Of a stretch of DNA of 64,000 bases, positions 4,470 to 64,000 are shown piece by piece. Numbering within the stretch: position 1 is the first letter of the stretch; each line of letters opens with the position of its first letter. Location: NCBI GenBank assembly GCA_039683515.1, contig JBDKRG010000040.1:1751-65750 (forward strand), in the 5' to 3' direction. The DNA comes from Candidatus Sumerlaeia bacterium (lineage in GTDB: Bacteria > Sumerlaeota > Sumerlaeia > MVZB01). A program made the translations under genes and the position numbers. The notes under the pieces are model-generated. The model worked only from the letters and a program-made list of their open reading frames with translations, was not told where the DNA came from and did not search any database.

Positions 4470-5846
4470 TCAGTCCGTGCCGGCCCCTTGAATCGGCAGC
4501 GCGAACGCGAACGTCGTCCCCACGCCGACGCGGCTCGTGACCCAGATCCGCCCGCCGTGCGCCTCGACGATCCGTTTCGCGATCGCCAGCCCCAGGCCCG
4601 TGCTGCGCTCGCCGGCGGTCGGCTGCGTGCTGGTCTTGCCGAAATCCGAAAACAGCCCCGGCAGCTCGGCCTGCGGGATCCCCTGCCCCTGGTCGATGAC
4701 CGAGATCACCACCTCTCGGTCCTGGCCCGCGCACGACAGCGTGATCTCGGTCTCGGGGTGCGAAAACTTGATCGCGTTGGTGATCAGGTTGCTCAGCACC
4801 TGGCCGATCCGGTCCGGGTCGAAACGCGCGGCCGGCGGCGCCGACTCCTCGTCCAGTTTGATCCGGATGAACTTGGCGCGCGCGAGCAGCTCGTGCGACT
4901 CGACCGCCTCGCGCAGGAATTCGCCCAAGCCGACGTCGCTCGGGTTCAGCTCGATCCGCCCCGATTCGATCATCCCGATGTCGAGCGTCGCGTCGATCAG
5001 CTTGGTCATCGCGATGCACTTGGCGTTCATGCGCTCGAGCAGCGCGCGCTGGTTGGGCGGCACCTCGCCGACGATCCCGTTCAGAAACAGATGCAGGTAG
5101 CCGCGGAAAATGCCGAGCGGGCTGCGCAGGTCGTGCGCCGTCATGGCCACGAACCGGTTCTTGACCTGGTTCAGGTTGTAGAGCTCTTCATACAGGCGGC
5201 TCTTTTCGATGGCGAGCGCGACCTGCCCGGCGATCTGGCGGAACAGCCCCACGTGCGCGTCGCGATACGTCCCGGCCGCGGTCGACGAGAAGAACAGGAA
5301 CCCGATCGGCTTGCCGTTGGCGACGAGCGGGCAGGTCAGGCTCGAGCGGATCCCCTCGCTCAGGATCCGGCGCGTCGAGTCGGACTCGGGGTGGGCGGCC
5401 AGGTGCGCCTCCAGGTCGTTGATGATGCGCGGCTCGCCGGTCTCGATGATCCGCCGCAGGCTGCTCCCCTCGAGCGGCGCCTTGTAGCCGGCCGGCAGCC
5501 GCACCTCGTCGTAGCCGGCGCGCGCCCAGCGCGAGTAGACGTTCTCGCCGCCCTCGTCGAGCAGCGCCAGCCCGATGCGCTGATACGGGATGATCGCGTG
5601 GCACGAGTCATAGATGTAGTTGAGCACGTCCTCGAGCATCAGCCCGGCGTTGATCCGCTCGGTGATGGCCAGCAGCCGGCTCATTTCCGCAAAGCGCGCC
5701 TGCATGATCTGGCCCAGGTCGATGAGGATCTGGCCGAGGCCGGCGAGGTCGTCGCGCGGGTCGAGCGGCAGGTCCAGGTTGAACTCGCCGCGCTTGAGCG
5801 CCATCGCCGCCTCGCGGTAGATCGAAATTTGCCGGTCCCGTTCCAT
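4470..5846 (-). CDS. GAF-domain sensor histidine kinase
   Basis: Has a HisKA H-box (AMTAHDLRSPL) and HATPase_c N/G boxes (NLITNAIKFS, DQGQGIP, GLGLAIAKRIVEAHGGRIWV). Start set at MERDRQ (complement of 5844-5846). The C-terminal codons are encoded by the (gtccgtgcc)n repeat. Confidence 0.9.
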   Translation of the reverse strand: MERDRQISIYREAAMALKRGEFNLDLPLDPRDDLAGLGQILIDLGQIMQARFAEMSRLLAITERINAGLMLEDVLNYIYDSCHAIIPYQRIGLALLDEGGENVYSRWARAGYDEVRLPAGYKAPLEGSSLRRIIETGEPRIINDLEAHLAAHPESDSTRRILSEGIRSSLTCPLVANGKPIGFLFFSSTAAGTYRDAHVGLFRQIAGQVALAIEKSRLYEELYNLNQVKNRFVAMTAHDLRSPLGIFRGYLHLFLNGIVGEVPPNQRALLERMNAKCIAMTKLIDATLDIGMIESGRIELNPSDVGLGEFLREAVESHELLARAKFIRIKLDEESAPPAARFDPDRIGQVLSNLITNAIKFSHPETEITLSCAGQDREVVISVIDQGQGIPQAELPGLFSDFGKTSTQPTAGERSTGLGLAIAKRIVEAHGGRIWVTSRVGVGTTFAFALPIQGAGTD

Positions 5847-21753: not shown

Positions 21754-21960
21754 TTTTTGCGCTGAAGGCGCAAGAGATCATAGCCTGGGGCGGAGCGAAG
21801 CGCAGCCCCAGGTCACGAACCGCACCCAACCGGAGCTCTGAAAGAGCGAGAGAAATCGGCTTCTCCCGCGCCTTCAGCGCTCCAACGATATTGCGTCGTT
21901 TACCTGGGGCTGCGCTTCGCTCCGCCCCAGGCTGTACTCTTACGCGCTTTCAGCGCTTGG
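21754..21960. repeat. Structured intergenic repeat element family 1, copy B
   Basis: Aligns with 1853-2060 along its length: the same modules gcgctgaaggcgcaagagat..atagcctgggg, agctctgaaagagcg, cgcgccttcagcgc, cctggggytgcgcttcgctcc.ccccagg and cgcgctttcagcgctt. Confidence 0.8.
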
Positions 21961-22298
21961 GATCGCTTGCATCTCAAAACATACGACCTATGGCAGAGCA
22001 GTAATAGAGCACTTGACCAAAGTTATCGGTTCGCGTTCGTGCTCGTGCTCGTGCTCGTAATCGAATCAGCACCAAGCTTCGAAACCAAGCCCCGTCTCGA
22101 TTACGGCGATTGCCGTAAGACTTTCACTCGTTCCGGGTTCGCAATCCAAAGCCGGCTGTGTCATCGCTAGCCACCGCCGCACCGCCTCTGTGTCCTTTCG
22201 ATCCACAACGATCTCCCTGCCGCAACCCGTCTGCCTCCACCTCATCGTTTTTTCCTAATATATTCGTGCTTTTCGGCCCGCCGGCGCCTCCGCGCGAG

Positions 22299-22315
22299 TT
22301 GGCACTGAGTTTGCA
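22299..22315 (+). promoter_or_regulatory. σ54 (RpoN) -24/-12 promoter
   Basis: ttGGCACtgagtTTGCA matches TGGCAC-N5-TTGCW with correct GG/GC spacing, ~100 bp upstream of hsp20 at 22417. An NtrC-family σ54 activator gene lies at 50848-52230. Confidence 0.6.
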
Positions 22316-22416
22316 ATCTCCTATGCGCGTCGAGGCCGAATCAGCGGAGCACGCTCGAGGCCTCGGCCCTCGGGGACCGCCACCCGATGCACCCCTTGAT
22401 TCAGGAGGATTGGATC

Positions 22417-22884
22417 ATGTCATTCGCATGGGATCCTTTCCGTGAAATGGAGTCGCTCCATCGCGAGATCGACCGTCTGTTCAATCAGCCCCACTGGCAG
22501 TCCCACTGGCGCACGCCGCTGAGCCGCGTCTCGTTCCTGCCGGGGCTGTCGGCGCGGGCCTACCCGCTCCTGCGGCTCGACGACCAGGCCAACGAGATCG
22601 TCGTCGAGGCCCTGGCGCCCGGGGTTGACGTGGATTCGCTCAAGGTATCGGTCGTCAACCAGCAGCTGCGCATCGAGGGGACGAAGCCCGCCCCCGCGGG
22701 CATCGAAGCCGAGGCGTATCACCGCAACGAACGCTCGGCCGGCGCCTTCGTGCGCATCCTGTCGCTGCCGGCCTCGGTCAACCCCGACAAGATCTCGGCC
22801 GACTACAAGAACGGCGTCCTGTCGATCCGGATGCCGAAGGCCGAACACGCGCGGCCGCGCCAGATCTCGGTCAACGTCCAGTAG
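22417..22884 (+). CDS. Hsp20/alpha-crystallin small heat-shock protein
   Basis: Alpha-crystallin domain features: the WDPFREM start typical of bacterial sHSPs, and a C-terminal GVLSIRMPK pattern. Confidence 0.85.
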   Translation: MSFAWDPFREMESLHREIDRLFNQPHWQSHWRTPLSRVSFLPGLSARAYPLLRLDDQANEIVVEALAPGVDVDSLKVSVVNQQLRIEGTKPAPAGIEAEAYHRNERSAGAFVRILSLPASVNPDKISADYKNGVLSIRMPKAEHARPRQISVNVQ

Positions 22885-22918: not shown

Positions 22919-23323
22919 ATGGCAGAGAATACAATCCAAACCACGGGCAACGCCGTCGCCGAAGCCGCGCGCACCCCGTCCGTAACCCGCGACGAGGAAC
23001 GCTACCAGGTCCCGCCCGCCGACATTTTCGAGACCAACGGCGACCTGACCGTCGTGGCCGACCTGCCGGGCGTGGAGAAGGACGGCCTCAAGGTGCGCGT
23101 CGACGACGACGTCCTGACCATCGAGGGCAAGGTCCGCCACATGGAGAAACGGGCCAACCTCATCAACGAGTTCGAGCTGGTCGATTACTTCCGCCAGTTC
23201 CGGTTGAGCGAGGAAATCGACCGGGAGAAGATCTCGGCGGAGCTCAAGAACGGTGTCCTGACGCTGAAGCTTCCCAAGGCCGAAGCCGCCAAGCCCCGCC
23301 AGATCGAAGTCAAGATGGCGTAA
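22919..23323 (+). CDS. Hsp20/alpha-crystallin small heat-shock protein (second copy)
   Basis: PADIFETNGDLTVVADLPGVEKDGLKVRVDDDVLTIEGK ... AELKNGVLTLKLPK is the canonical alpha-crystallin domain pattern. RBS ggaggt upstream. Confidence 0.85.
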   Translation: MAENTIQTTGNAVAEAARTPSVTRDEERYQVPPADIFETNGDLTVVADLPGVEKDGLKVRVDDDVLTIEGKVRHMEKRANLINEFELVDYFRQFRLSEEIDREKISAELKNGVLTLKLPKAEAAKPRQIEVKMA

Positions 23324-26780: not shown

Positions 26781-26884
26781 AAAACGGCTTCCCATGTCGT
26801 GCTCGTGTTATGACGAAAAGATGTTGGAAGTCCTCGTGCTCGTGCTCGTGCTCGTGCTCGTAATCGTAATCGAAGATCAAACTT

Positions 26885-35444: not shown

Positions 35445-35656
35445 AAGCTCACCTCCCGAGAGATTATCCCCGCGCACCGTAATCGTGCTCGTGCTCGTGC
35501 TCGTAATCGTAATCGTAATCGTAATCGTGAGATTTCCCCACCATGATGCGCCCGGCATTCACTCCGGGGCAAGCCAAAATGCACCCCAATGCGCCCCAAA
35601 AAGAAATCGCCTCCAGCCATGCTGAAGGCGAACTCACAAACGGGTGACACTCGAAA

Positions 35657-39555: not shown

Positions 39556-39650
39556 ATTATCGTGCGTCGTAATCGTGCTCGTGCTCGTGCTCGTAATCGT
39601 AATCGACTCGACTCGACTCGACTCGTAATCGAATCGAATCGAATCGAAAC
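39556..39650. repeat. Compound hexamer repeat (gtaatc)(gtgctc)3(gtaatc)2(gactc)4(gtaatc)(gaatc)3
   Basis: cgtaatcgtgctcgtgctcgtgctcgtaatcgtaatcgactcgactcgactcgactcgtaatcgaatcgaatcgaatcg. Same family as 22031-22060, 26826-26880, 35468-35530 and 42228-42272. Confidence 0.9.
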
Positions 39651-42156: not shown

Positions 42157-42277
42157 TAAAATGATGGTGACTTATTGCACAGGGCCAAGTAAAGACAAAT
42201 CAGAAGTATAGGGGCGGCCTTCATATTTTTCGTGCTCGTGCTCGTGCTCGCAATCGTAATCGTAATCGAATCAACAG

Positions 42278-46273: not shown

Positions 46274-46735
46274 TTAAATAAATGCGCATAATCGGCGCAG
46301 CTGGAGATTCGGGTGAAACCATTTCGCAAACTGGTCGTGCACGACAGCGATGAGCGCCTGCAGCGTCTCGAAGTAGACGTTGTGCGTGCACAGCGTGCGG
46401 GTCAGTTTCCAGACGCGCTCGACCGGGTTCAGGTCCGGGCTGTACGGCGGCAGAAAATCCAGCCGCAACTCGTGCCGATGCTTGTGAAGCCACAGCCGCA
46501 GCGCCCGCGCATGGTGCCAGCGCGCGTTGTCGACGATCACAACTATCTTGCGCCCGGGCCGCCGGCGACGCAGCAACGCCTGCAGAAACACCTTGAAGCT
46601 TTTGGCGTCGAACGTATCGGCCGGCATTGTCAGCAGTCGCCCATCGGCCGGACAGACCGCACCGAACACGGCCGTCTGCTTGCGTGTCGAGGCATGCAGG
46701 ACCACCGGGTCCGCGTCCTCGGGAGGGATCCACAT
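46274..46735 (-). CDS. IS630 transposase OrfB (DDE catalytic part)
   Basis: DLWCQDECHF...VIVDNARWHH...SPDLNPVE are the IS630 DDE blocks. Its frame stays open upstream through the A7 site and is +1 relative to OrfA. The full-length transposase therefore needs a frameshift, or this copy is frameshift-inactivated. Confidence 0.8.
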   Translation of the reverse strand: MWIPPEDADPVVLHASTRKQTAVFGAVCPADGRLLTMPADTFDAKSFKVFLQALLRRRRPGRKIVVIVDNARWHHARALRLWLHKHRHELRLDFLPPYSPDLNPVERVWKLTRTLCTHNVYFETLQALIAVVHDQFAKWFHPNLQLRRLCAFI

Positions 46736-46787
46736 GGCGCAGCGTGAACCGTGCTGCTGGAAGTGGCATTCGTCCTGGCACCACAGG

Positions 46788-47312
46788 TCAATGTCCTTTC
46801 TTCGGGCCAGGCGGCGCAGTTTTTTTATATGCGCGCTGGGCGGCGGGGTCGGCTTGGGCGATCACCGGACGCGGTTTGCGGCGGCGGAACCCGAGCTCGC
46901 GAAACAGGCGTTGGCACTGGCGCACGCCGAGCTTGATGCTGTAGCGGACCTCGAGGTGATGCGACAGCAGTTTGCCGTCCCACAGGTTCTGGCCGTAGCC
47001 GAGTTTGCGCGGCGACTGGCGCAGGTCCTGACCGATACGCTGGCGCGTCTTGTCGTCGAGCGCCGCCGGCCGGCCGGGCCGCTCCTCATCCTGCAGGCCG
47101 GCAAAGCCGCTATGCTCGAAACGATCGACCCAGTACTGAATCGTGCGCGGGCTGTGGCCCAACAGGTCAGCCACTTCGTAGCAGGATTTGCCCGCGCACA
47201 CGAGCAGAACCCCGTGCAGACGATGATCGTAGCGGGATTCCTCGGATCGGACGATTTCCTGCTGTACGGCCACTTTCATGATCTCGGCATCTTGGATCTG
47301 AAGTTTTCGCAT
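46788..47312 (-). CDS. IS630 transposase OrfA (N-terminal HTH part)
   Basis: Carries a helix-turn-helix typical of IS630/Tc1 N-termini. It ends in YKKTAPPGPKKGH*, and the codons tat aaa aaa contain an A7 slippery run. Confidence 0.8.
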   Translation of the reverse strand: MRKLQIQDAEIMKVAVQQEIVRSEESRYDHRLHGVLLVCAGKSCYEVADLLGHSPRTIQYWVDRFEHSGFAGLQDEERPGRPAALDDKTRQRIGQDLRQSPRKLGYGQNLWDGKLLSHHLEVRYSIKLGVRQCQRLFRELGFRRRKPRPVIAQADPAAQRAYKKTAPPGPKKGH

Positions 47313-50847: not shown

Positions 50848-52230
<1,383 letters not shown>

Positions 52231-53419: not shown

Positions 53420-53598
53420 CTTTGGAGGTCGAACCGCTGACGCGGTTCTTGAGCAACGGTATTTGGTTCTGGCTATGCCAACTTACGATTGCGAGCACGA
53501 GGACGATTTGCAGCTTCACCTCGCCCTTTCCAATTCGGGCGCATTGATGGTATGAATGGGTCGGTCTGGATTCGAAGCGCCACGGCCGCGTTTGGGCC

Positions 53599-54804
53599 GT
53601 GCAGAACCGGTCGGGTATGGTTTCGCGGACCAATCGCCATCAGATACAGATCAAGATCTCAAGCTCGTGGCGCCGCCGCGCGCGGCTGGGGCTGCTTGCC
53701 GGGCTGATCCTTGCCGGGCTGGCGATCGCGGCGCTCGAAAAATACCGCAGCGCCGAGGCGTTCACGGTCTGGTCGCGCGCCTACGCGAAACTTTCGCCGG
53801 TGCTGGACCCGGCGCGCACGCGAACGCGCCAGTGGGTCATGACCGCGATCAAGCTCAACGAGCTGTGGGCGGTCGAGACCGAAAAGGAAAAACTGGACCG
53901 CGAGCTGACCCGCACCCGGCTGCAGAACGACCTGCTCGCCGAGCAGGTGGGGCGGCTGCAGAGGCTTTCGGGCCTGGGGACGTGGGCCGCGCCGCCGCAG
54001 CTCAGGTTCGTGCAGGCCGACATCACCGGCCTCATCACCAGCGACGAAAGCATGCTGCTGACGATCAACCGCGGGCGCGCCGACGGGATCAGCCCGCGCG
54101 ACCCGGTCGTGGCGCTCGACGGGCTGGTCGGCATGATCCGCTCGGTCCAGGACCACACGGCGCAGGTGCAGGCGATCACTGACCCGATGAGCGTGGTCGG
54201 CGCGGCGACGCGCGACACGCGCGCGCGGGGGGCGCTCTACGGCCGCGGCCGCGGCAAGCCGCTCGAGTTCCTCCCCGAAAACGAGGTCGAGAATTTCAAC
54301 ATCGGCTCGCGGCTGATCACGTCGCGGTTCGAGAATTCCAATTTCCCCAAGGGGATCACGATCGGCGTCATCGAGAAGCGCGACCTGAACCTCTACGGCA
54401 TCCCGGTCGGCGTGGTGCGGTCGGCGGTCTCGTTCGACACGCTGGAGGAAGTGCTCGTGATCATCCCCGCCCACGAGGACGCCCTGGGGACCGGCTCGCT
54501 CGGGGCGATCCGGATCGTCATGCCGCGCGGCGACGAACTGGCCGCCGAGACCACGGGCACGCTCGCGGCCGACCGCGCGACGACCGGGACGGCGTTGACG
54601 AGCCCGACGCTCGCCGCCGCGAACCCGACGAGCGCGACGCTGCGGATGCTGAAACATACGACGTCGACGCTGCAGCGCGCGCAAACGACTTCGGGAACGC
54701 TCGCCACGGGCCGCGACGCGCGGACGACAAAAACCCTTCGCCGCGACACGGCGACAACGCGAACGCGGCGCCGCGCGCGGCCCGCGCCGGAGGCCGCCCC
54801 ATGA
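53599..54804 (+). CDS. mreC: Rod shape-determining protein MreC with a Thr-rich C-terminal extension
   Basis: N-terminal TM helix, coiled coil (LTRTRLQNDLLAEQVGRLQRL), MreC beta-domain motifs (GLITSDESMLLTINRG, DGLVGMI) and a C-terminal T/A/R-rich tail. No mreB upstream. Confidence 0.8.
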   Translation: MQNRSGMVSRTNRHQIQIKISSSWRRRARLGLLAGLILAGLAIAALEKYRSAEAFTVWSRAYAKLSPVLDPARTRTRQWVMTAIKLNELWAVETEKEKLDRELTRTRLQNDLLAEQVGRLQRLSGLGTWAAPPQLRFVQADITGLITSDESMLLTINRGRADGISPRDPVVALDGLVGMIRSVQDHTAQVQAITDPMSVVGAATRDTRARGALYGRGRGKPLEFLPENEVENFNIGSRLITSRFENSNFPKGITIGVIEKRDLNLYGIPVGVVRSAVSFDTLEEVLVIIPAHEDALGTGSLGAIRIVMPRGDELAAETTGTLAADRATTGTALTSPTLAAANPTSATLRMLKHTTSTLQRAQTTSGTLATGRDARTTKTLRRDTATTRTRRRARPAPEAAP

Positions 54805-55322
54805 TCCGGTTCATCGTTTTCATCGTCATCTACCTGTTCGTGGCGCTCGAGATCGAGGCGGGGGTGCTCCCGCAGATCGAGTCGCTGCTGAGCGGCCGCT
54901 ACGAGCTGATGATCGGGCTGCGGATGCTCGCGCTCGGGGCGGTGCTCGCGGGGATGCTGCGCGGCGAGGTCGCGGGGATGCTCGCGGGGCTGGCCGGGGC
55001 GCTCCTGGCGGGGTGCTCGATGCAGGCCGGCTGGCTGGGGGCGGGGATCGTCAGCTTCGCCTTGATCGGTTACCTCGCCGGCCTGATGGCACGCCAGTTC
55101 CGGCTGAACGGGTTCATGTTCCGCTGGTTCACGATTTTCTTCCTGCTGGTTGTCGAGCGGCTGGCGTTCATCATGGCGCGCTGGTTCTTCTGGCGCGACA
55201 GCGGGCTCGTGATCCCGTGGCTGACGCTGATCCTCACGGGGCTGATCGGGAGCGTGATCTACCGGCTGTTCTCGCGCGCGCTGAAATCGAACAACCTATA
55301 CGGCGTGGACGTCGAAGCGTAG
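54801..55322 (+). CDS. mreD: Rod shape-determining protein MreD
   Basis: Polytopic 173-aa membrane protein whose start overlaps the mreC stop (ATGA). Confidence 0.65.
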   Translation: MIRFIVFIVIYLFVALEIEAGVLPQIESLLSGRYELMIGLRMLALGAVLAGMLRGEVAGMLAGLAGALLAGCSMQAGWLGAGIVSFALIGYLAGLMARQFRLNGFMFRWFTIFFLLVVERLAFIMARWFFWRDSGLVIPWLTLILTGLIGSVIYRLFSRALKSNNLYGVDVEA

Positions 55323-57988: not shown

Positions 57989-59590
57989 TTACGCCCGGGC
58001 GACGGCGCCGGGGCCGGGGGCGGGGGCGTGGGCGAGCTTGACGCCGCGGATGCGGAATCGGGCGCCGCCGCCGCCGTCGAGGCATTCGATCTCCCACTGG
58101 TGGGCAAGGGCGATCTGGCGCACGACGGCCAGGCCGAGGCCGGTGCCGTCCTCGCGGGTCGTGAAATACGGTCGGAAGACCAGCTCGCGCTGGTCGGGCG
58201 GGATGCCGGGGCCGTTGTCGCGGACCTCGATCTCCGCCTCGCCGAAACCGGTCGGCTTGAGCTCGACCTGAATGCGGCCGCCGCGGCCGACGGCCTGGAT
58301 CGAGTTGAGCAGCAGGTTGAAGAGCATTTGGCGCAGGAGGGCATGGTCGGCCTCGATCGCGCCCTTGAGGCCGATCGGCTCGAAGCGGATCTCCTTGTCG
58401 AGGATGTCGCTGTCGAGGGCGCGTACGACGTCGAGGACCACGGTGCGCAGGTTGAGCGGCGCGGGGCGCGGCTCGGGCGGCCGCGAGTAGTTGATGAACT
58501 CGTTGAGGCGGTTGGTGACGCGGTCGACTTCCTGCGTGATGTCGATGGCGCGCGTATGGATCTCGCCGGCGGCGGACGGATGCTGCGAGATGAGCTGGGC
58601 CAGGCCGCGAATGATGTTGAGCGGGTTGCGCGTCTCGTGGGCGAGGCCGGCCGCGGCGAGGTTCAGTTCCTGCAGGTGCAGGTTCATCTGGCTGGCGCGG
58701 GCGAGCCGAAGCTGCAGGCGCGAGGTCTTCTGCAACTGGTGCCAGGCGGCCGCGAGGCCGGCGGCGGCGAGCGCGGCGATGGCCGCGATGATGATGCGCT
58801 GCCACAGGTCGGCCCGGATGGAACGGTCGTACTCGGCGCGCGACAGGCTGATCACGAAGCCGTGGAGGCCGCGGCTCTTGAGCAACTCGTCATAGCGGGC
58901 CTTGTCCATCCAGAACGGGCGGCGGAAGGCGGGGCGCCCGCCGCCGCGCGGGCGCTCGGCGCCGGTCACCGTCGTCCGGCCGTCGCCGGCATGGGGGGCC
59001 ATGGCGACGGCCCGCTCGCCGGCGTGGCGGCCCGCGGTGGTTAAAGTGTCTTCCGGCCGGGAAGACCCGGGCTCGCGCCCGTGACCAATTTCGCCTCCGG
59101 GGGGAGGAGGAGGAGGCGGCTGAAGTCGGCCTTGCGGCACAGTGCCGCTGGTCTCACCCGGCCGGAAAGGGGGCAGCACGATGGTCGTGCTGCTCGGCAG
59201 ATCGCCGAAATCCACGAGATTGACAAACGTGACGCTGTCGGTGTTCCACTGCTCGCCCTGTTCGGGGAGGCTGGCCAGGTCGGGGGGGGCGCCCTTGCCG
59301 GCGCTGGCCACGACCTCGCCCTTGGAGTTTAACAGCGCGATCGAAACGAGGCCAGAGGTCTTCGCCAGCTCGCGCAGGTTGTCCTCGAGGCGCTCCTGGC
59401 GGATGACGAGGCCGCGCTGGCGCCCGGCCCGGACCGACGCGCTGAGGGCGATCGACGTGGCGCTGGACTGCGTGCGCAGGCCGGCCCGCTCGGCGTCGCG
59501 GACCCGCCGGTGCTCGACGCACTGCCAGCCGACCATCATCAGCCATGCCAGGCATAGCGCCGCGTAGACCGTGGCCTCATTTCTTCGCAC
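57989..59590 (-). CDS. Sensor histidine kinase (periplasmic sensor, HisKA + HATPase_c) cotranscribed after the secretin genes
   Basis: Two TM segments flank a ~250-aa periplasmic region with a poly-Pro stretch. H-box LAHETRNPLNII. N/G boxes LLLNSIQA, DNGPGIP, GTGLGLAV. Its start overlaps the secretin stop by 14 bp. Confidence 0.85.
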   Translation of the reverse strand: MRRNEATVYAALCLAWLMMVGWQCVEHRRVRDAERAGLRTQSSATSIALSASVRAGRQRGLVIRQERLEDNLRELAKTSGLVSIALLNSKGEVVASAGKGAPPDLASLPEQGEQWNTDSVTFVNLVDFGDLPSSTTIVLPPFRPGETSGTVPQGRLQPPPPPPPGGEIGHGREPGSSRPEDTLTTAGRHAGERAVAMAPHAGDGRTTVTGAERPRGGGRPAFRRPFWMDKARYDELLKSRGLHGFVISLSRAEYDRSIRADLWQRIIIAAIAALAAAGLAAAWHQLQKTSRLQLRLARASQMNLHLQELNLAAAGLAHETRNPLNIIRGLAQLISQHPSAAGEIHTRAIDITQEVDRVTNRLNEFINYSRPPEPRPAPLNLRTVVLDVVRALDSDILDKEIRFEPIGLKGAIEADHALLRQMLFNLLLNSIQAVGRGGRIQVELKPTGFGEAEIEVRDNGPGIPPDQRELVFRPYFTTREDGTGLGLAVVRQIALAHQWEIECLDGGGGARFRIRGVKLAHAPAPGPGAVARA

Positions 59591-60845
59591 GCTTGCGTCT
59601 CTCCGGGGCCGCCGGCGTCGTCACAACCTTGGCGGCGGAGGGCTGCTTGACGGTCGCGGCCTCGGCCGGAACCGCCGGCTTTGGCGTATTGTCGCTCTTC
59701 TCGTCGAGATTTACGAGGAACTTCTCCTTCTGTTTGCTGGTAAACGCCTCGTCGATCATACCGGCGCGATTTCTTTCGTCAAGGGAAACGGTGCGGGCTT
59801 CGTTGGAACGCTGGATGATCTGGGGGGTCAGGAAAATCAACAGCTCGGTCTTGACGGTCTTGGATTCGGTCCGCCGGAAGAGGGCGCCGAGCATCGGGAT
59901 GTCGCCCAGGAGGGGGATCTTGGTGACCTTCTCGGTCTTCGCGTCCTCCATCATCCCGCCGATGACGACGGTCTTGCCGTTCTGGACGACGACCTGGGTG
60001 TCGGCCGAGCGCACGTCGATGACGTTGGCGCCGACCGTGTCGGTGATGGCGACGGTCTCCGAGGTCAGCTTCGAGATTTCCGGGCTGATCTCCATCTCGA
60101 CCATCCCCTCCGGCGTGATGTGCGGGGTGACGCGCAGGATGATGCCGATGTCGCGCCACGAAATGTTGTTGATCGTCTGGCCGGAGTCGGTGACGCGGCT
60201 GCTGGTGACGTACGGGATCGTCTGGCCGACGGTGATGGTGGCGAGCTGGTTGTTGCGCGCCATGACCGAGGGCCGGGAGAGGACCTCGAGCTTGTTCTTC
60301 TCGGCGATGGCGCGGATCAGCAGCTCGATGTCGGTGTCGACGAGCTGGTAGATCCCGCCGTTGGTCTCGGAGGCGAGGCCGAAGTTGCTGAGGATGCTCT
60401 GCGTGCGGTCGCCGCTGACGTCCTTGTAGCTCGCCTGAACGCCCAGGTCCAGGTCATCGCTGTGCGTGACCTCGAGGAACAGGACCTTGATGAGGACCTG
60501 CGGGATCGGGCGGTCGAGGTGCTCGATGACCTGCTTGATATATTCATTGGTCTCCTCGTCGGCGATCACCACGACCTGGCCCGATTCCTGGTCGTACTGG
60601 ATGATGGCGTTCTGGCCGAGGCGGCTGGTCGGATTGGGCTGGACCGGCGCGCCGCTCTGGCCGTTCTCCTCCTCCTCGTCGATGACCGGCTCAACGCCGG
60701 CCTCGGCGCCGGCCATGTCCGGCGGAGGGGCCATGGCGTCCTGGGCCCAGGGGCGGCCCGGGAGAAGCAACAACGCCAGCGCGAAGATGAATGGATAGCG
60801 CGAGTGCGCGGTCAGCGGCTTGAGCATGCGGAAAAACAGGTTCAT
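59577..60845 (-). CDS. Secretin (GspD/PilQ family): one secretin_N domain plus the C-terminal secretin channel domain
   Basis: Signal peptide MNLFFRMLKPLTAHSRYPFIFALALLLLPGRPWAQ. N1-type domain (IKVLFLEVTHSDDLDLGV). C-terminal secretin motifs (VVIGGMMED..., IPLLGDIPMLGALF). Confidence 0.85.
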   Translation of the reverse strand: MNLFFRMLKPLTAHSRYPFIFALALLLLPGRPWAQDAMAPPPDMAGAEAGVEPVIDEEEENGQSGAPVQPNPTSRLGQNAIIQYDQESGQVVVIADEETNEYIKQVIEHLDRPIPQVLIKVLFLEVTHSDDLDLGVQASYKDVSGDRTQSILSNFGLASETNGGIYQLVDTDIELLIRAIAEKNKLEVLSRPSVMARNNQLATITVGQTIPYVTSSRVTDSGQTINNISWRDIGIILRVTPHITPEGMVEMEISPEISKLTSETVAITDTVGANVIDVRSADTQVVVQNGKTVVIGGMMEDAKTEKVTKIPLLGDIPMLGALFRRTESKTVKTELLIFLTPQIIQRSNEARTVSLDERNRAGMIDEAFTSKQKEKFLVNLDEKSDNTPKPAVPAEAATVKQPSAAKVVTTPAAPERRKRAKK

Positions 60846-60875
60846 GAGATCGATTCCTCGCCGATTCAAAGTGGG

Positions 60876-62537
60876 TTAATAGCGGCTGCTGCCCGAACGG
60901 TTGTAGGAGGAGCTGCTGCTGCCGTACGACGAGCCGTAGTTGCTGCTGCGGTTCGAGCTGCCGTAGTTGCCGCTGCTGTTGCGGTTGGAGGAGCGGTTGC
61001 TGCTGCTGTTGTTGTAGTTGCTGGTGGAGCGGTTGGTGCTGCTGTAGGAGGACGTGCTGCGCCGGGTGGTCCCGCCGTTCTGGAACATGTCCTGCAGCAT
61101 CGTGGAGACCTGCTCCCCGTCGGCGTTGTGCAGCTGGTAGACGAACACCTTCTGATGGCCCGCCGGGTCCTTGTCCAGGTTCGAGATGACCTGGGCGACC
61201 TGCTGCAGGACCGAATCGACGGCGATCACGATGACCGAGTTGGTGCGCGTGTCGGCGACGGCCGTGACGGTTTTCTGCTGCAGCTGGCGCTGCGTGGAGC
61301 CGCCGGCGCCGGCGGTGGACTGGCGCTGCATCCCCTGCATGCCGCCGGGGAACCGGCCGCCGCCGAACTGGTTGCGGCTGGTGGCGCCGGCGGTCTGGGC
61401 GGTGTCCTTGTACATGTTGGTGATGAGGTCGGTCATCTCGGTGGCGTCGGCGAACTGAAGCGGGAAGACCTGAATCTGGGTCTGGAGCTCCTCGGTCCTG
61501 TCGACCTCGGTAACAATTTCGGCGATCGTCTGGTGCAGCTCCTCGGGGGCGCTGACGACGACGGCGTTGGTGCGGGTGTCGGCGACGGCGAGGACGCGCG
61601 AGGCGGCCTGGCGCGCCTGGCTGTCCTGCTGCTGCTGGCCCATGCCGCCCATGCCGCCCTGGCCGCCGGGGCCACCCATGCCGCCGCCGAACCGCGCCTG
61701 GAACATCGCGGCCATGCCGCCGCGCATGTTGTTGCGGTTGCCCGAGCTGTTGGAGGTCGTGAACAGGTTGTTGATCATGTTCGTCACTTCGGTGGCGTCG
61801 GCGAACTTGAGCATGTAGACCCGGATCGTGGTGATCTCGGAGATCGAGGTGTCGAGGGCCTTGACGATCTGGGCGATGCGCTGGACGTTGGCCTGGGTGT
61901 CGGTCAGCACGATCGAGTTGGAGCTGACGTTGGCCGTCGCCGTCGCCCAGCTCGGCAGGAGCTGCTGGATGTCGTTGAGCATCGCGGTCGCGTCGGCGTA
62001 GCGGACCGGGATGATCTGCGTGATCATCTCGTCGGTCGAGGGGATCTTCTCGGGATCGTTGCCCTTCTTGACCGGGATGTTGTTGGTGCGGGCGTCGTCG
62101 CGCGAGACGATCTTGAGGACGCGGCCGTTGCGGATGGCCGAATACCCCTTCTCGTTGAGGACGGTGTTGAGCAGCTCGACCGCCTCGGCGCGGTTAAGCG
62201 GCTGGTGGCTGACGACGTCGACGCGGCCGTCGACGTTGACCGAGCGGACGATGACGAAGCCGCCGGCCTTGCTCATGTAATCGAGGACGGTGTCGAGCGA
62301 GGCGCCGCGGAAATTGAAGCTCATCATGCCGTCGCCGGCCGCGGCCTCGGCGGTGGCCGAGGTTGCGGCGGTCGAGGTCGTCAGGGCCGCGGAATCCGCC
62401 ACCATGAGCCTGGGCGCGGCAAGCTGCGCGATTTCGACATCGGCCGGACTGCGTTTGGTGATCGAGGCCGCCGACGCCAGGGTCGCGGCCGCGCCGAGCG
62501 CGACCGCCATCACGGTAATACCCATAAGCCGTTTCAT
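60876..62537 (-). CDS. Secretin N-domain protein (N0-like + 3 secretin_N repeats) with an Asn/Ser/Tyr-rich low-complexity tail
   Basis: Signal peptide MKRLMGITVMAVALGAAATLASA. Repeats IRVYMLKFADATEVTNMIN / IQVFPLQFADATEMTDLI / VFVYQLHNADGEQVSTML. C-terminal ~70 aa are S/N/Y/R-rich. It ends 6 bp before the next gene's start region. Confidence 0.8.
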   Translation of the reverse strand: MKRLMGITVMAVALGAAATLASAASITKRSPADVEIAQLAAPRLMVADSAALTTSTAATSATAEAAAGDGMMSFNFRGASLDTVLDYMSKAGGFVIVRSVNVDGRVDVVSHQPLNRAEAVELLNTVLNEKGYSAIRNGRVLKIVSRDDARTNNIPVKKGNDPEKIPSTDEMITQIIPVRYADATAMLNDIQQLLPSWATATANVSSNSIVLTDTQANVQRIAQIVKALDTSISEITTIRVYMLKFADATEVTNMINNLFTTSNSSGNRNNMRGGMAAMFQARFGGGMGGPGGQGGMGGMGQQQQDSQARQAASRVLAVADTRTNAVVVSAPEELHQTIAEIVTEVDRTEELQTQIQVFPLQFADATEMTDLITNMYKDTAQTAGATSRNQFGGGRFPGGMQGMQRQSTAGAGGSTQRQLQQKTVTAVADTRTNSVIVIAVDSVLQQVAQVISNLDKDPAGHQKVFVYQLHNADGEQVSTMLQDMFQNGGTTRRSTSSYSSTNRSTSNYNNSSSNRSSNRNSSGNYGSSNRSSNYGSSYGSSSSSYNRSGSSRY

Positions 62538-63133
62538 TGTCCCATCTCCCTTTTGCGTCGTTCACGCATACGTGCAAGCGTATCCGCGGTGTTTGTGTTC
62601 GATGTGTTGCCCTGCTGGACCGAGCTGCCCCGGCCGGTGCGGTTGCCGGAGCGGCCGGTGCGGAAGCTCGGCCTGGGTGACGAGGGGCGGGCCGGGCTGT
62701 CGGCCACGGTCCAGGCCTGGCCCTCCTGCCGGGTGAGGCGCTTGCCGACCGGCCACTCGACCGTGAGGTCGCCGGCCAGCATCTTGAGCCCCTCGGTGGA
62801 GATCGCCGCGACCTTCATGTCGGCGATGGTCTCGCCGAGCCTGAGCGTGCGGCTGTTGTCGGCGTTCGATCCCTCGGTGAACGCGACGGCCTCGCCGCCT
62901 TCGATGATCGTGCCGAGCAGGTCGATCGTGTCGAGGACCGGCGTGGTCGCGGAGGTGTCCTCGGCGCGCCGGCCGGCCCGGCGGTTCGGATCGAAAATGT
63001 TGCGCTGGACGATCAGCTCGAACTTCTCGAACGAGCCCCCCCCGGCGGGCGCGGCGGCATCGGCCGCGCGGGCCGCCCGGGGCAAGACCGCGCCCGCGAT
63101 CAACACCATGAGCATCAGGGCGGTCTTAGTCAT
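62534..63133 (-). CDS. PilP/GspC-like secretin-associated periplasmic protein (putative)
   Basis: Signal peptide, then ELIVQRNIFDPNRR, which resembles the conserved R-D/N-P-F-x-P motif of PilP. Its position between the PilO-like and secretin genes supports the call. Confidence 0.45.
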   Translation of the reverse strand: MTKTALMLMVLIAGAVLPRAARAADAAAPAGGGSFEKFELIVQRNIFDPNRRAGRRAEDTSATTPVLDTIDLLGTIIEGGEAVAFTEGSNADNSRTLRLGETIADMKVAAISTEGLKMLAGDLTVEWPVGKRLTRQEGQAWTVADSPARPSSPRPSFRTGRSGNRTGRGSSVQQGNTSNTNTADTLARMRERRKREMGQ

Positions 63134-63659
63134 TGCGCCCTCCCCGCAGGGTCACCCCGGTCAGGAGCATGTTGAGCGACAGGGTGCGTCCGGCGTCGTC
63201 GCGCGCCGAGATTTCGACGTCCTGCACGCGCAGGGCGCGGGGGTCCTGTTCGACGTCATAGAGAAACCGCGCGATCGAGCCGATCGAGCCGGTGGCCAGG
63301 ACGCGGAAGTCGACGTGCCTGGTCCCGTCCTTTTCGGTGACCCACGGCTGCGGCCGCTGCGAGTTGAACGACAGGCCCGACTTGGACCAGTCGTTGAGCG
63401 CGGCGTAGATCATCAGCTCGGCCTCGGACTGCTCGGCCGGCAGGCTGTTCTTGACCATCTCGTCCCAGCGCGCCTCGTAGCCGGCCTTGTGGCTCAGCAG
63501 CGCCTCGCCCTTGGCGATCTGGGTTTCCAGCTTCGCGATCTGAGCCTCGCGCTGCTTCCAGCCCTCGAGCATCGGCCCGAGCACGATCCGGTCCAGGATC
63601 AGCAGGCCAAGGCAGACGGCGACGGTGATCACCAGGAGTCGGTTGCGGTTATTCGCCAT
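63126..63659 (-). CDS. PilO/GspM-like pilus or secretion assembly protein (putative)
   Basis: Short cytoplasmic N-terminus, one TM helix (LLVITVAVCLGLLIL), a coiled coil (REAQIAKLETQIAKGEALL), then an ~100-aa periplasmic domain. Confidence 0.5.
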   Translation of the reverse strand: MANNRNRLLVITVAVCLGLLILDRIVLGPMLEGWKQREAQIAKLETQIAKGEALLSHKAGYEARWDEMVKNSLPAEQSEAELMIYAALNDWSKSGLSFNSQRPQPWVTEKDGTRHVDFRVLATGSIGSIARFLYDVEQDPRALRVQDVEISARDDAGRTLSLNMLLTGVTLRGGRND

Positions 63660-64000
63660 TGGCTCTCTCCCCTTTCCAGACGTAAGTCAGCGTGAACTGC
63701 TGCGGCGACTGGCCCTGGACGTCCATGTGGAGCTCCCTGACGCCCGAGGACTCCTGGAGCATGTTGGCCATCTCGCGCCACTTCGTGTCGCTCTTCGAGC
63801 TGCCCGTGCAGGTGACCTTGGTCTGGTCCTTGATCTGGACCATGCGCGCCCAGACGGAGCCGTCGGGCGGGAACGCCTGCGTCAGGCCGTTGAGGATCGT
63901 CAGGCTCGGGGCCGAGTCGTCGAACCACGGCCGGTAGCGGCGGATCTGCTCCTGAAGCCCCTCGATCCGCTTGACATCGGGCTCGATCTCCTTCCATTGG
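63649..64000 (-). CDS. PilN-like protein, C-terminal part (the gene continues beyond the window)
   Basis: The minus frame is open to the window edge (...WKEIEPDVKRIEGLQEQIRRYRPWFDDSAPSLTILNGLTQAFPPDGSVWARMVQIKDQTKVTCTG...). Its stop overlaps the downstream PilO-like gene's start by 11 bp. Confidence 0.45.
   Translation of the reverse strand, partial: QWKEIEPDVKRIEGLQEQIRRYRPWFDDSAPSLTILNGLTQAFPPDGSVWARMVQIKDQTKVTCTGSSKSDTKWREMANMLQESSGVRELHMDVQGQSPQQFTLTYVWKGERANGE

Follow-up and report, generated by a model that had tools for sequence, protein, structure and literature searches.

The 64,000-nucleotide (nt) stretch of DNA from a Candidatus Sumerlaeia bacterium analysed here (the window) carries on its minus strand the distal part of a type II secretion system (T2SS) operon, in which the outer-membrane secretin is encoded by two adjacent genes, named here DN (553 amino acids, aa) and DC (422 aa), with the gene of a sensor histidine kinase directly behind them. 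The split between the two genes lies inside a domain, it is conserved in related loci of several phyla, and the kinase and a sigma-54-dependent response regulator are linked to it in most of the loci in which they can be assessed. The locus is best read, with a probability of about 70%, as encoding a T2SS secretin that is made as two exported polypeptides, cut within an N domain, and that is accompanied by a co-inherited two-component system. Secretins are otherwise treated as single-chain 12- to 15-mers.

DN (60876-62537, minus strand) is composed, in order, of a signal peptide, the domains N0, N1, N2 and N3, the first half of a further N domain and a polar tail, as assigned from comparisons with Pfam, the NCBIfam model TIGR02517 and the PDB, from AlphaFold2 (AF2) modelling and from Foldseek. 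Pfam detects the GspD N0 domain with 45 bits and three Secretin_N stretches with 138 bits. The AF2 model, which has a mean predicted local distance difference test score (pLDDT) of 64.7 and reaches 75-90 in the folded parts, shows N0, N1, N2 and N3, and in the last two a disordered Gly-rich insert separates alpha1 from beta2. Behind N3, residues 462-487 (KVFVYQLHNADGEQVSTMLQDMF; 61077-61154, minus strand) form an orphan beta1-alpha1 unit of Secretin_N, in which the strand is derived from the Pfam alignment and the family consensus and the helix, residues 474-487, from AF2. This segment is among the best conserved of the whole family, with V464 invariant and Y467, A472, V477, L481 and F485 kept in at least 90% of the members. 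The remaining 66 residues (aa 488-553; 60879-61076, minus strand) make up a disordered Ser/Asn/Tyr/Arg/Gly-rich tail with a pLDDT below 50. An earlier, preliminary description of the stretch had already pointed to a long Ser/Asn/Tyr-rich tail, and the composition agrees, Ser making up 42% of it, Asn 17% and Tyr 11%; all 30 aligned homologues likewise end in a polar stretch of low complexity, 25-60 aa long.

DC (59577-60845, minus strand; 422 aa counted from its ATG) starts with a signal peptide and an acidic, Pro-rich linker, which are followed by the second half of an N domain, the secretin domain and a variable Lys/Pro-rich C-terminus; no recognisable S-domain is found in it. The Pfam Secretin model PF00263 matches with 172.3 bits (cut-off 27.5) over profile positions 2-169 of 169, and a partial Secretin_N match precedes it. 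The latter, residues 78-125 (NAIIQYDQESGQVVVIADEETNEYIKQVIEHLD; 60471-60614, minus strand), comprises beta2-beta3-alpha2 without a preceding beta1-alpha1 and covers only positions 27-69 of the 69 positions of the Secretin_N profile.

When the two remnants are scored as isolated fragments, the end of DN matches Secretin_N over positions 1-24 with 20.9 bits and the start of DC over positions 29-69 with 23.7 bits. Joined in silico, they match positions 1-69 of 69 with 47.9 bits (gathering score 28.2), while N2 and N3 of DN, with their inserts removed, score 49-52 bits on the same model. Three other DN/DC pairs, two from Omnitrophota and one without a lineage label, each apparently encoded on one contig, behave alike (35.6-51.8 bits). 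The gene cut falls in the alpha1-beta2 loop of the last Secretin_N domain, not between the N domains and the channel. Of the earlier view, in which the N-domain repeats and the channel were assigned to two adjacent genes, the two genes stand, whereas the boundary has to be moved, as the cut runs through the last Secretin_N and DC keeps its second half. A similar picture is given by the GspD equivalog model TIGR02517 (600 positions, cut-off 351 bits), on which DN scores 217 bits over positions 1-335 and DC 237 bits over positions 291-600; neither half passes, and together they span positions 1-600 and overlap by one N domain.

The uncut form of such a protein can be found among the relatives. 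The nearest relatives among the 1.8 billion representatives searched are short, and fused proteins of about 775-895 aa come directly behind them. They align colinearly with DN and then DC, at 44-49% identity over the DC part and, in P0345, 37% over the DN part, and they contain an uninterrupted Ser/Thr/Gly/Arg-rich loop exactly between "...AVFVYRLKNADAANLEQILNDLF" and "QVYFVADEDTNSLLV...LDEPVPEVLIKVLLAEVTH". One fused relative, P0357, stems from the Tepidisphaeraceae (Planctomycetota). As the alignments indicate, the split form carries in a low-complexity loop of the last N domain a stop codon, then a short spacer and a signal peptide, none of which the fused form has. Giant proteins of about 1,500-5,500 aa that carry the secretin domain at their extreme C-terminus are also present among the relatives of the short secretin (P0402, P0406, P0412, P0417-P0420 and others); P0406, for instance, has 5532 aa and its secretin match lies at 5162-5456.

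The two-gene layout is not restricted to the window. A scan with one genome per species returned at least 542 confirmed relatives, and gene order was compared in the best 80 loci among them, the denominators given here and below being the loci with enough flanking sequence. DN and DC occur as one open reading frame (ORF) in 0 of 80 loci, and a separate DN ends just before DC in 74 of 74 with enough upstream sequence, so the single fused secretin that the preliminary description had considered for relatives is not seen at these loci. The order H/I-J-K-L-M-199aa-DN-DC is kept in 59 of 62. In all 120 matches listed for DN, the homologue has N0 and Secretin_N without the PF00263 Secretin domain, and in all 120 listed for DC, it is a protein of 306-443 aa that has the Secretin domain and no more than one Secretin_N. 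The loci belong to Sumerlaeota/BRC1, Omnitrophota, many lineages of Verrucomicrobiota and Lentisphaerota/Victivallales. Judged by these comparisons, the two-gene layout is the rule in hundreds of genomes of Sumerlaeota, Omnitrophota, Verrucomicrobiota and Lentisphaerota, and because it is conserved across loci, the arrangement exceeds what chance would produce. It had been regarded as non-standard, which holds against the textbook T2SS and type IV pilus, but within a very large clade it is the norm.

The genes in front of DN point to a Gsp-type T2SS. Six ORFs run in the same direction on the minus strand between 64000 and 57989, according to the ORF list and the domain scans, in agreement with the six-gene run and the sizes reported before. 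The first of them leaves the window, and only the C-terminal 116 aa, the periplasmic part, of a 469-aa GspL-like protein are encoded within it (63649-63999, minus strand). Its translation equals that of positions 3737-4087 of L001, a 12.3-kb Logan contig that represents an independent assembly of the window locus and reaches only the gspI/gspJ region; the complete gene is found at L001 2678-4087 and gives weak PilM-type matches N-terminally. The second gene (63126-63659, minus strand) encodes a GspM/PilO-like protein of 177 aa, which matches Pfam PilO with 26 bits (cut-off 22), T2SSM_b weakly and the NCBIfam GspM model GspM_XpsM with 41 bits, under its cut-off of 60, and has an orthologue at the equivalent position in related loci. 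The position and the size of the 469-aa and 177-aa proteins agree with GspL and GspM. The third gene (62534-63133, minus strand) encodes a secreted or anchored protein of 199 aa, which shows in the family alignment an ERNIFxPNR motif, a beta-domain and a C-terminal DILKRLMERR helix, and DN, DC and the kinase gene follow. By their coordinates, the GspL- and GspM-like genes overlap by 11 nt, the GspM-like and the 199-aa gene by 8 nt, the 199-aa gene and DN by 4 nt and DC and the kinase gene by 14 nt, while DN and DC are separated by 30 nt, so the tight junctions described earlier are found, with one gap. The earlier labels PilN-, PilO- and PilP-like hold in part: the 177-aa protein is GspM/PilO-like and the 199-aa protein probably PilP/GspC-like, whereas the "PilN-like" ORF is the C-terminus of the GspL-like protein and the system is of the Gsp type.

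Further upstream, L001 carries an N_methyl plus T2SSJ protein (244 aa) and a T2SSK_1st protein (471 aa) immediately before the GspL-like gene. Orthologous operons on long contigs (L009, L082, L083 and L084) encode Pfam T2SSE with MshEN, T2SSF and T2SSG, and their order is gspE-gspF-gspG-two pseudopilins-gspJ-gspK-GspL-like-GspM-like-199-aa gene-DN-DC-kinase-regulator. The window locus, as its genes and their order identify it, is the 3' half of a Gsp-type T2SS operon, gspE-F-G-H-I-J-K-L-M-(C-like)-DN-DC-HK, where HK is the histidine kinase; gspE, gspF and gspG would be expected in the window's own genome by synteny with the orthologous loci. The best database match of DC comes from a Candidatus Sumerlaeia metagenome-assembled genome (MAG).

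The secretin halves themselves agree with this assignment. In the PDB, DN matches N0-N3 of PulD and DC matches N3 and the channel of GspD, T2SS secretins being the best-scoring structures; the top match of DC is GspD 5wq7 (1.5e-42), and PilQ, RcpA, pIV and InvG rank behind it. For both halves, GspD models also give higher scores than the PilQ, MshL, SctC and HofQ models. A PilMNOPQ pilus system was considered and rejected, as the GspD model gives 237 (DC) and 217 (DN) bits against 181 and 63 bits with the PilQ model, and it is further disfavoured by the fusion of PilM-like and PilN-like parts in one GspL-like gene. No second (retraction) ATPase is encoded in the operons L082, L083 and L084, nor did the operons examined show a pilotin gene. 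The 199-aa protein has no match in Pfam or NCBIfam. In the PDB, the only related-looking matches of its family profile are PilP 2y4x and 2lc4, with sub-threshold E-values of 0.026-0.031, and one family member matches Pfam T2SSC weakly (E=0.12). Its gene is kept between GspM and DN across related loci, and the protein is probably a connector of the GspC/PilP type.

The kinase gene (57989-59590, minus strand) encodes 533 aa with Pfam HisKA and HATPase_c domains. Its GTG at 59590 is the sole start codon upstream of the first transmembrane helix (TM1), and the gene call on L001 agrees, so that the start overlaps the secretin stop by 14 nt, as first described. The protein is composed of TM1, a periplasmic alpha/beta sensor with a disordered Pro-rich insert, a second transmembrane helix (TM2), HisKA and HATPase_c; the periplasmic region comprises about 225 aa between the two helices, as seen in an AF2 model of residues 1-300 and in the sequence. 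It is a periplasm-sensing kinase tightly attached to the secretin gene, as had been proposed. The sensor is modelled with confidence as a small alpha/beta domain (pLDDT 77.9). It matches no family in profile searches of Pfam and the PDB sequences, and Foldseek finds no fold at E<=1e-3, the insignificant matches being sensor domains of WalK, KinD and DctB and Roadblock proteins. The sensor region has 95 homologues, all of which are kinases of the same architecture except three short sequences (192-427 aa) that look truncated. The domain is conserved across phyla at roughly 30-58% identity and travels with the genes of the machine.

An orthologous kinase, mostly at 250-413 bits, is found directly after DC in 53 of the 75 loci that extend far enough downstream, 19 nt being the median distance between the two genes. 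The 53 loci span Sumerlaeota, Omnitrophota, Verrucomicrobiota and Lentisphaerota; the unlinked kinase envisaged earlier for relatives is not what these 53 loci display. In 37 of 47 loci, the gene next after the kinase encodes an NtrC-type sigma-54 regulator. By this pattern of co-occurrence, the kinase and the NtrC-type regulator are a two-component system inherited with the machine. The window itself contains an orphan sigma-54-dependent response regulator of the NtrC/AtoC/ZraR type (50848-52230, plus strand; Pfam Response_reg, Sigma54_activat and HTH_8), which is 48-67% identical to the operon-linked regulators. No kinase gene lies beside it, and the ORF upstream encodes, by eye, an oxidase-like protein of 960 aa. 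This regulator is probably the partner of the kinase, displaced by about 5.8 kb, and the two would be paired in this genome. Between it and the end of the T2SS genes lie mreC-like and mreD-like ORFs (53599-55322, plus strand; by eye), an ordinary housekeeping context. An IS630-family-like transposase, also recognised by eye, is encoded in two adjacent ORFs of 153 and 174 aa (46274-47312, minus strand). These precede the orphan regulator gene by about 3.5 kb, the T2SS genes being on its other side, and their position fits a local rearrangement.

The families nearest to the kinase core are ZraS and AtoS, and those nearest to the regulator AtoC, NtrC and ZraR. None of the equivalogs tried is reached: the kinase scores 188 bits against 479 for ZraS and 149 against 646 for AtoS, in both cases with the cytoplasmic core only, and the regulator 460 against 714 for AtoC and 417 against 760 for ZraR. 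Sigma-54 promoters were searched in 81 loci and the window with TGGCAC-N5-TTGCW, allowing at most one mismatch. The sole perfect site in the window, TGGCACTGAGTTTGCA (22300-22315, plus strand), precedes by about 90 nt a tandem pair of ORFs (22387-22884 and about 22920-23323) that look by eye like Hsp20-type small heat-shock proteins; the orphan NtrC-type regulator could act at this site. A general link between the kinase and Psp genes was considered and rejected, as pspA and pspC are found 3 kb downstream only in L084 and no PspA homologue is present in the other loci or the window.

In canonical systems, the N0-N3 array of the secretin docks on the inner-membrane platform through a GspC/PilP-type protein. 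For the system described here, DN and DC would be exported separately via Sec, DC supplying the outer-membrane channel with the membrane-proximal half of a domain and DN the periplasmic N0-N1-N2-N3 ring array, which the 199-aa protein would probably link to the inner-membrane platform in the manner of GspC or PilP. Since beta1-alpha1 of DN is conserved and the half-domain of DC lacks its partner strand, it is proposed that beta1-alpha1 of DN and beta2-beta3-alpha2 of DC complement each other in trans and rebuild one N domain, which would fasten the ring stack of DN non-covalently beneath the channel of DC. The polar tail of DN and the linker of DC would be what is left of the former loop. The kinase may read a cue from the machine or the envelope, such as the secretin, a pseudopilin or the state of the envelope, and the regulator may then activate sigma-54 promoters outside the operon.

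Several observations pull against this picture. The signal peptides that the preliminary description gave to DN and DC were recognised by eye, each as a basic n-region that leads into a hydrophobic core and an AxA-type site. The connector role of the 199-aa protein depends on the sub-threshold PilP match (E=0.026), and DN possesses a complete N3, so that plain stacking of rings, without strand complementation, could join the two parts. The last point leads to the possibility that DN is an independent periplasmic ring or scaffold, comparable to an adaptor of the GspC/GspB type, which is loosely stacked or tethered by its tail, the half-domains being evolutionary remnants. DN has a full N0-N3 set by itself, the N-domain rings of canonical secretins are known to stack without strand exchange, and short secretins with few N domains work elsewhere, pIV (7ofh) and RcpA (8odn) being among the matches of DC. 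However, half-domains without a function would be expected to decay, whereas the C-terminal beta1-alpha1 remnant ranks among the most highly conserved stretches of the DN family, every DC retains beta2-beta3-alpha2 without the central strand, and the halves are exactly complementary on the Pfam model in four of four gene pairs tested, which makes an independent DN unlikely. Far less probable, to the point of being negligible, is an artefact or a pseudogene, in which one gspD gene is broken by a spurious stop codon from assembly or sequencing. The DN stop codon, TAA (60876-60878), and the DC start are in one frame in the window, one TAA plus 10 codons apart, fused relatives exist, and DN and DC are in-frame in 40 of 78 related loci against 26 expected (binomial p=8e-4, uncorrected and with phylogeny ignored). 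This excess is better read as the trace of descent from a fused gene, which it probably is. L001, assembled independently, has the identical two genes, DN and DC, and each of the 240 listed homologues of either half is a single-part protein. Within the 30-nt spacer (60846-60875, minus strand), DC has its own ribosome-binding site, GAGGA, 9 nt before the ATG, its signal peptide is a family trait (the AxAQ site is kept in 18 of 18 aligned homologues), and a read-through product would bury this signal peptide midway in a periplasmic protein. An assembly error or a pseudogene is excluded because the ORFs are separate throughout the clade, in 74 of 74 related loci from several phyla, and because the DC signal peptide is conserved.

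The remaining points against the picture concern its regulatory part. The kinase is absent from its position in 22 of 75 loci, and those of them that have a lineage label all belong to Verrucomicrobiota or the PVC group (Opitutaceae, Limisphaerales, Chthoniobacterales and others), which implies that the machine needs no adjacent kinase gene. No consistent sigma-54 site is present in the captured operons and none lies upstream of gspE in L082 and L083, leaving autoregulation unsupported. In addition, the 3' end of DC contains a sigma-70-like consensus (59755-59782, minus strand; TTGACG-16 nt-TATGAT, 10/12) about 165 nt upstream of the kinase start, which could give the kinase a transcript of its own. 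Together with the location of the window regulator outside the operon, the absent kinases and this possible internal promoter would suit a kinase that is a mere neighbour without a functional tie to the secretion system. This is very improbable, as an orthologous kinase lies directly after DC in most loci and in four phyla, with overlapping genes in the window, and the regulator comes next in 37 of 47 kinase-bearing loci. A stronger competitor is a nutrient or substrate sensor that responds, for example, to the product of a secreted hydrolase and induces T2SS cargo and uptake genes. It is in line with the best, though weak, structural neighbours of the sensor, the ligand-binding PDC domains of WalK, KinD and DctB, with the resemblance of the cores to AtoS/AtoC as well as ZraS/ZraR and with the lack of an autoregulatory sigma-54 promoter at gspE. 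Although such a sensor is possible, the structural matches are all insignificant (none at E<=1e-3), and conservation of the sensor at about 30-58% across phyla of very different niches, together with its travelling with the machine, fits a cue intrinsic to the machine better. For this reason, a cue intrinsic to the machine or the envelope is favoured over a nutrient, weakly and at somewhat less than even odds.

Apart from the T2SS genes, the window contains a hexamer repeat, (CGTGCT)n(CGTAAT)n, at 22038-22063, 26835-26872, 35484-35515, 39574-39605 and 42231-42262 on the plus strand and at 53486-53505 on the minus strand, with 16 overlapping matches against 0.01 expected. The same motif is found at about 17310-17345 of L084, upstream of pspA in a related MAG, and it may be a regulatory or a REP-like element. 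The Rfam small RNA Acido-Lenti-1 occurs in two copies, at 2001-2055 and 21903-21957 (both plus strand), with 47.6 and 44.2 bits (gathering score 37). In another related MAG, a repeat of about 95 nt that contains a GC-rich hairpin (GGCTCCTCCC...GGGAGGAGCC) occurs twice, at about 400-495 and 660-755 of L082, in the 480-nt region upstream of gspE.

A stack of N domains that is naturally separate would demonstrate that a secretin's channel and its periplasmic vestibule can be produced, exported and possibly exchanged independently, and it would offer structural biologists a ready system for studying how N-domain rings dock. There is also a consequence for annotation. Some members of the families are named "secretin N-terminal domain-containing protein" in public databases and many "hypothetical protein"; with these names, and with both halves below the GspD cut-off, T2SS are probably under-called in Verrucomicrobiota, Lentisphaerota, Omnitrophota and Sumerlaeota. 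The co-inherited two-component system points to a built-in control or surveillance circuit, for which there is no described counterpart in model T2SS.

In the literature on split secretins and on secretins or T2SS in Verrucomicrobia, PVC bacteria and Sumerlaeota, this T2SS layout was not found described. Compared with canonical GspD proteins (PulD, EpsD, XcpQ and E. coli GspD), the order of N0, Secretin_N rings and channel is the same, as is the operon from gspE to gspM. The secretin described here differs in consisting of two polypeptides instead of one and of four Secretin_N-type domains instead of three, in its long low-complexity alpha1-beta2 inserts, in having no recognisable S-domain and in that its halves stay below the equivalog cut-off. 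The fused relatives (P0344-P0348, P0353 and P0355, 775-895 aa, and P0357) share with it the extra N domain and similar low-complexity loops, but they are single ORFs in which a loop takes the place of the stop codon, the spacer and the signal peptide.

Sigma-54 control of, or in response to, envelope machines is well known. In enterobacteria, the production of secretins induces the sigma-54-dependent Psp response, and PilS senses pilin. PilS-PilR, which controls type IV pilin, and ZraS-ZraR and PspF, which respond to envelope or secretin stress, resemble the system described here, a sensor kinase plus an activator of the NtrC class, in their sigma-54 control. PilS is polytopic, with about six transmembrane helices and no periplasmic domain, whereas the kinase described here has two helices and a periplasmic domain of its own, so that only the class of the regulator matches PilS-PilR. 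In contrast to both PilS-PilR and ZraS-ZraR, the kinase gene is part of the T2SS operon, in which it immediately follows that of the secretin.

Secretins encoded in more than one piece are known from two other systems. In type III secretion systems (T3SS) of the Rhc family (RhcC1/NolW and RhcC2; HrcIIC1/HrcIIC2), separate genes for the N- and C-terminal parts of the secretin are a family trait, the functional meaning of which is stated to be unknown, and the two genes lie apart, with other genes between them or in different clusters (PMC3574062). The likeness is limited to the split itself, as DN and DC are adjacent and stand in a gsp gene context, and DC scores 120 bits on the T3SS secretin model against 237 bits on the GspD model.

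The second case is the mitochondrial T2SS (miT2SS) of jakobids, heteroloboseans and malawimonads, the secretin of which is encoded in the pieces GspD, GspDL and GspDN1-3 (PMC8134430). GspDN3 consists of an N-terminal N-domain half and a polar/acidic tail, and GspDN2 of a C-terminal N-domain half and the start of the channel domain (PMC8134430, Supplementary Data 1), which reads "FDRPPQQ..LEF.FVEV" there and "LDRPIPQVLIKVLFLEV" here. The break point between GspDN3 and GspDN2 is the same alpha1/beta2 point as that between DN and DC. The miT2SS differs in being eukaryotic, in lacking N0 and GspC and in the further fragmentation of its channel domain, and the sequence similarity is weak. A GspDN2 profile gives best-domain scores of 19.0 bits for split DC proteins, 23.2 bits for a fused relative and 11.9 bits for canonical GspD in the PDB, the scores being weak and the sets unequal, and hhalign aligns GspDN2 with alignment A1 weakly (E=2e-4, 45% probability). 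The 15 best matches of a GspDN3 profile, at 9.3-11.5 bits and again weak and from unequal sets, all fall on DN's terminal half-domain, and the profile matches no structure in the PDB. These scores lean slightly towards the split clade but are too weak, and the sets too unequal, for a relationship to be claimed. The origin of the miT2SS was left unresolved in PMC8134430, according to which PVC bacteria also possess Gcp16, a newly described family. That the secretin described here is locked in trans through its split domain and that a lineage of the PVC/Sumerlaeota type gave rise to the fragmented miT2SS GspD, or is its nearest relative alive today, is quite improbable; the within-domain break point shared with the eukaryotic system nevertheless makes this evolutionary hypothesis testable.

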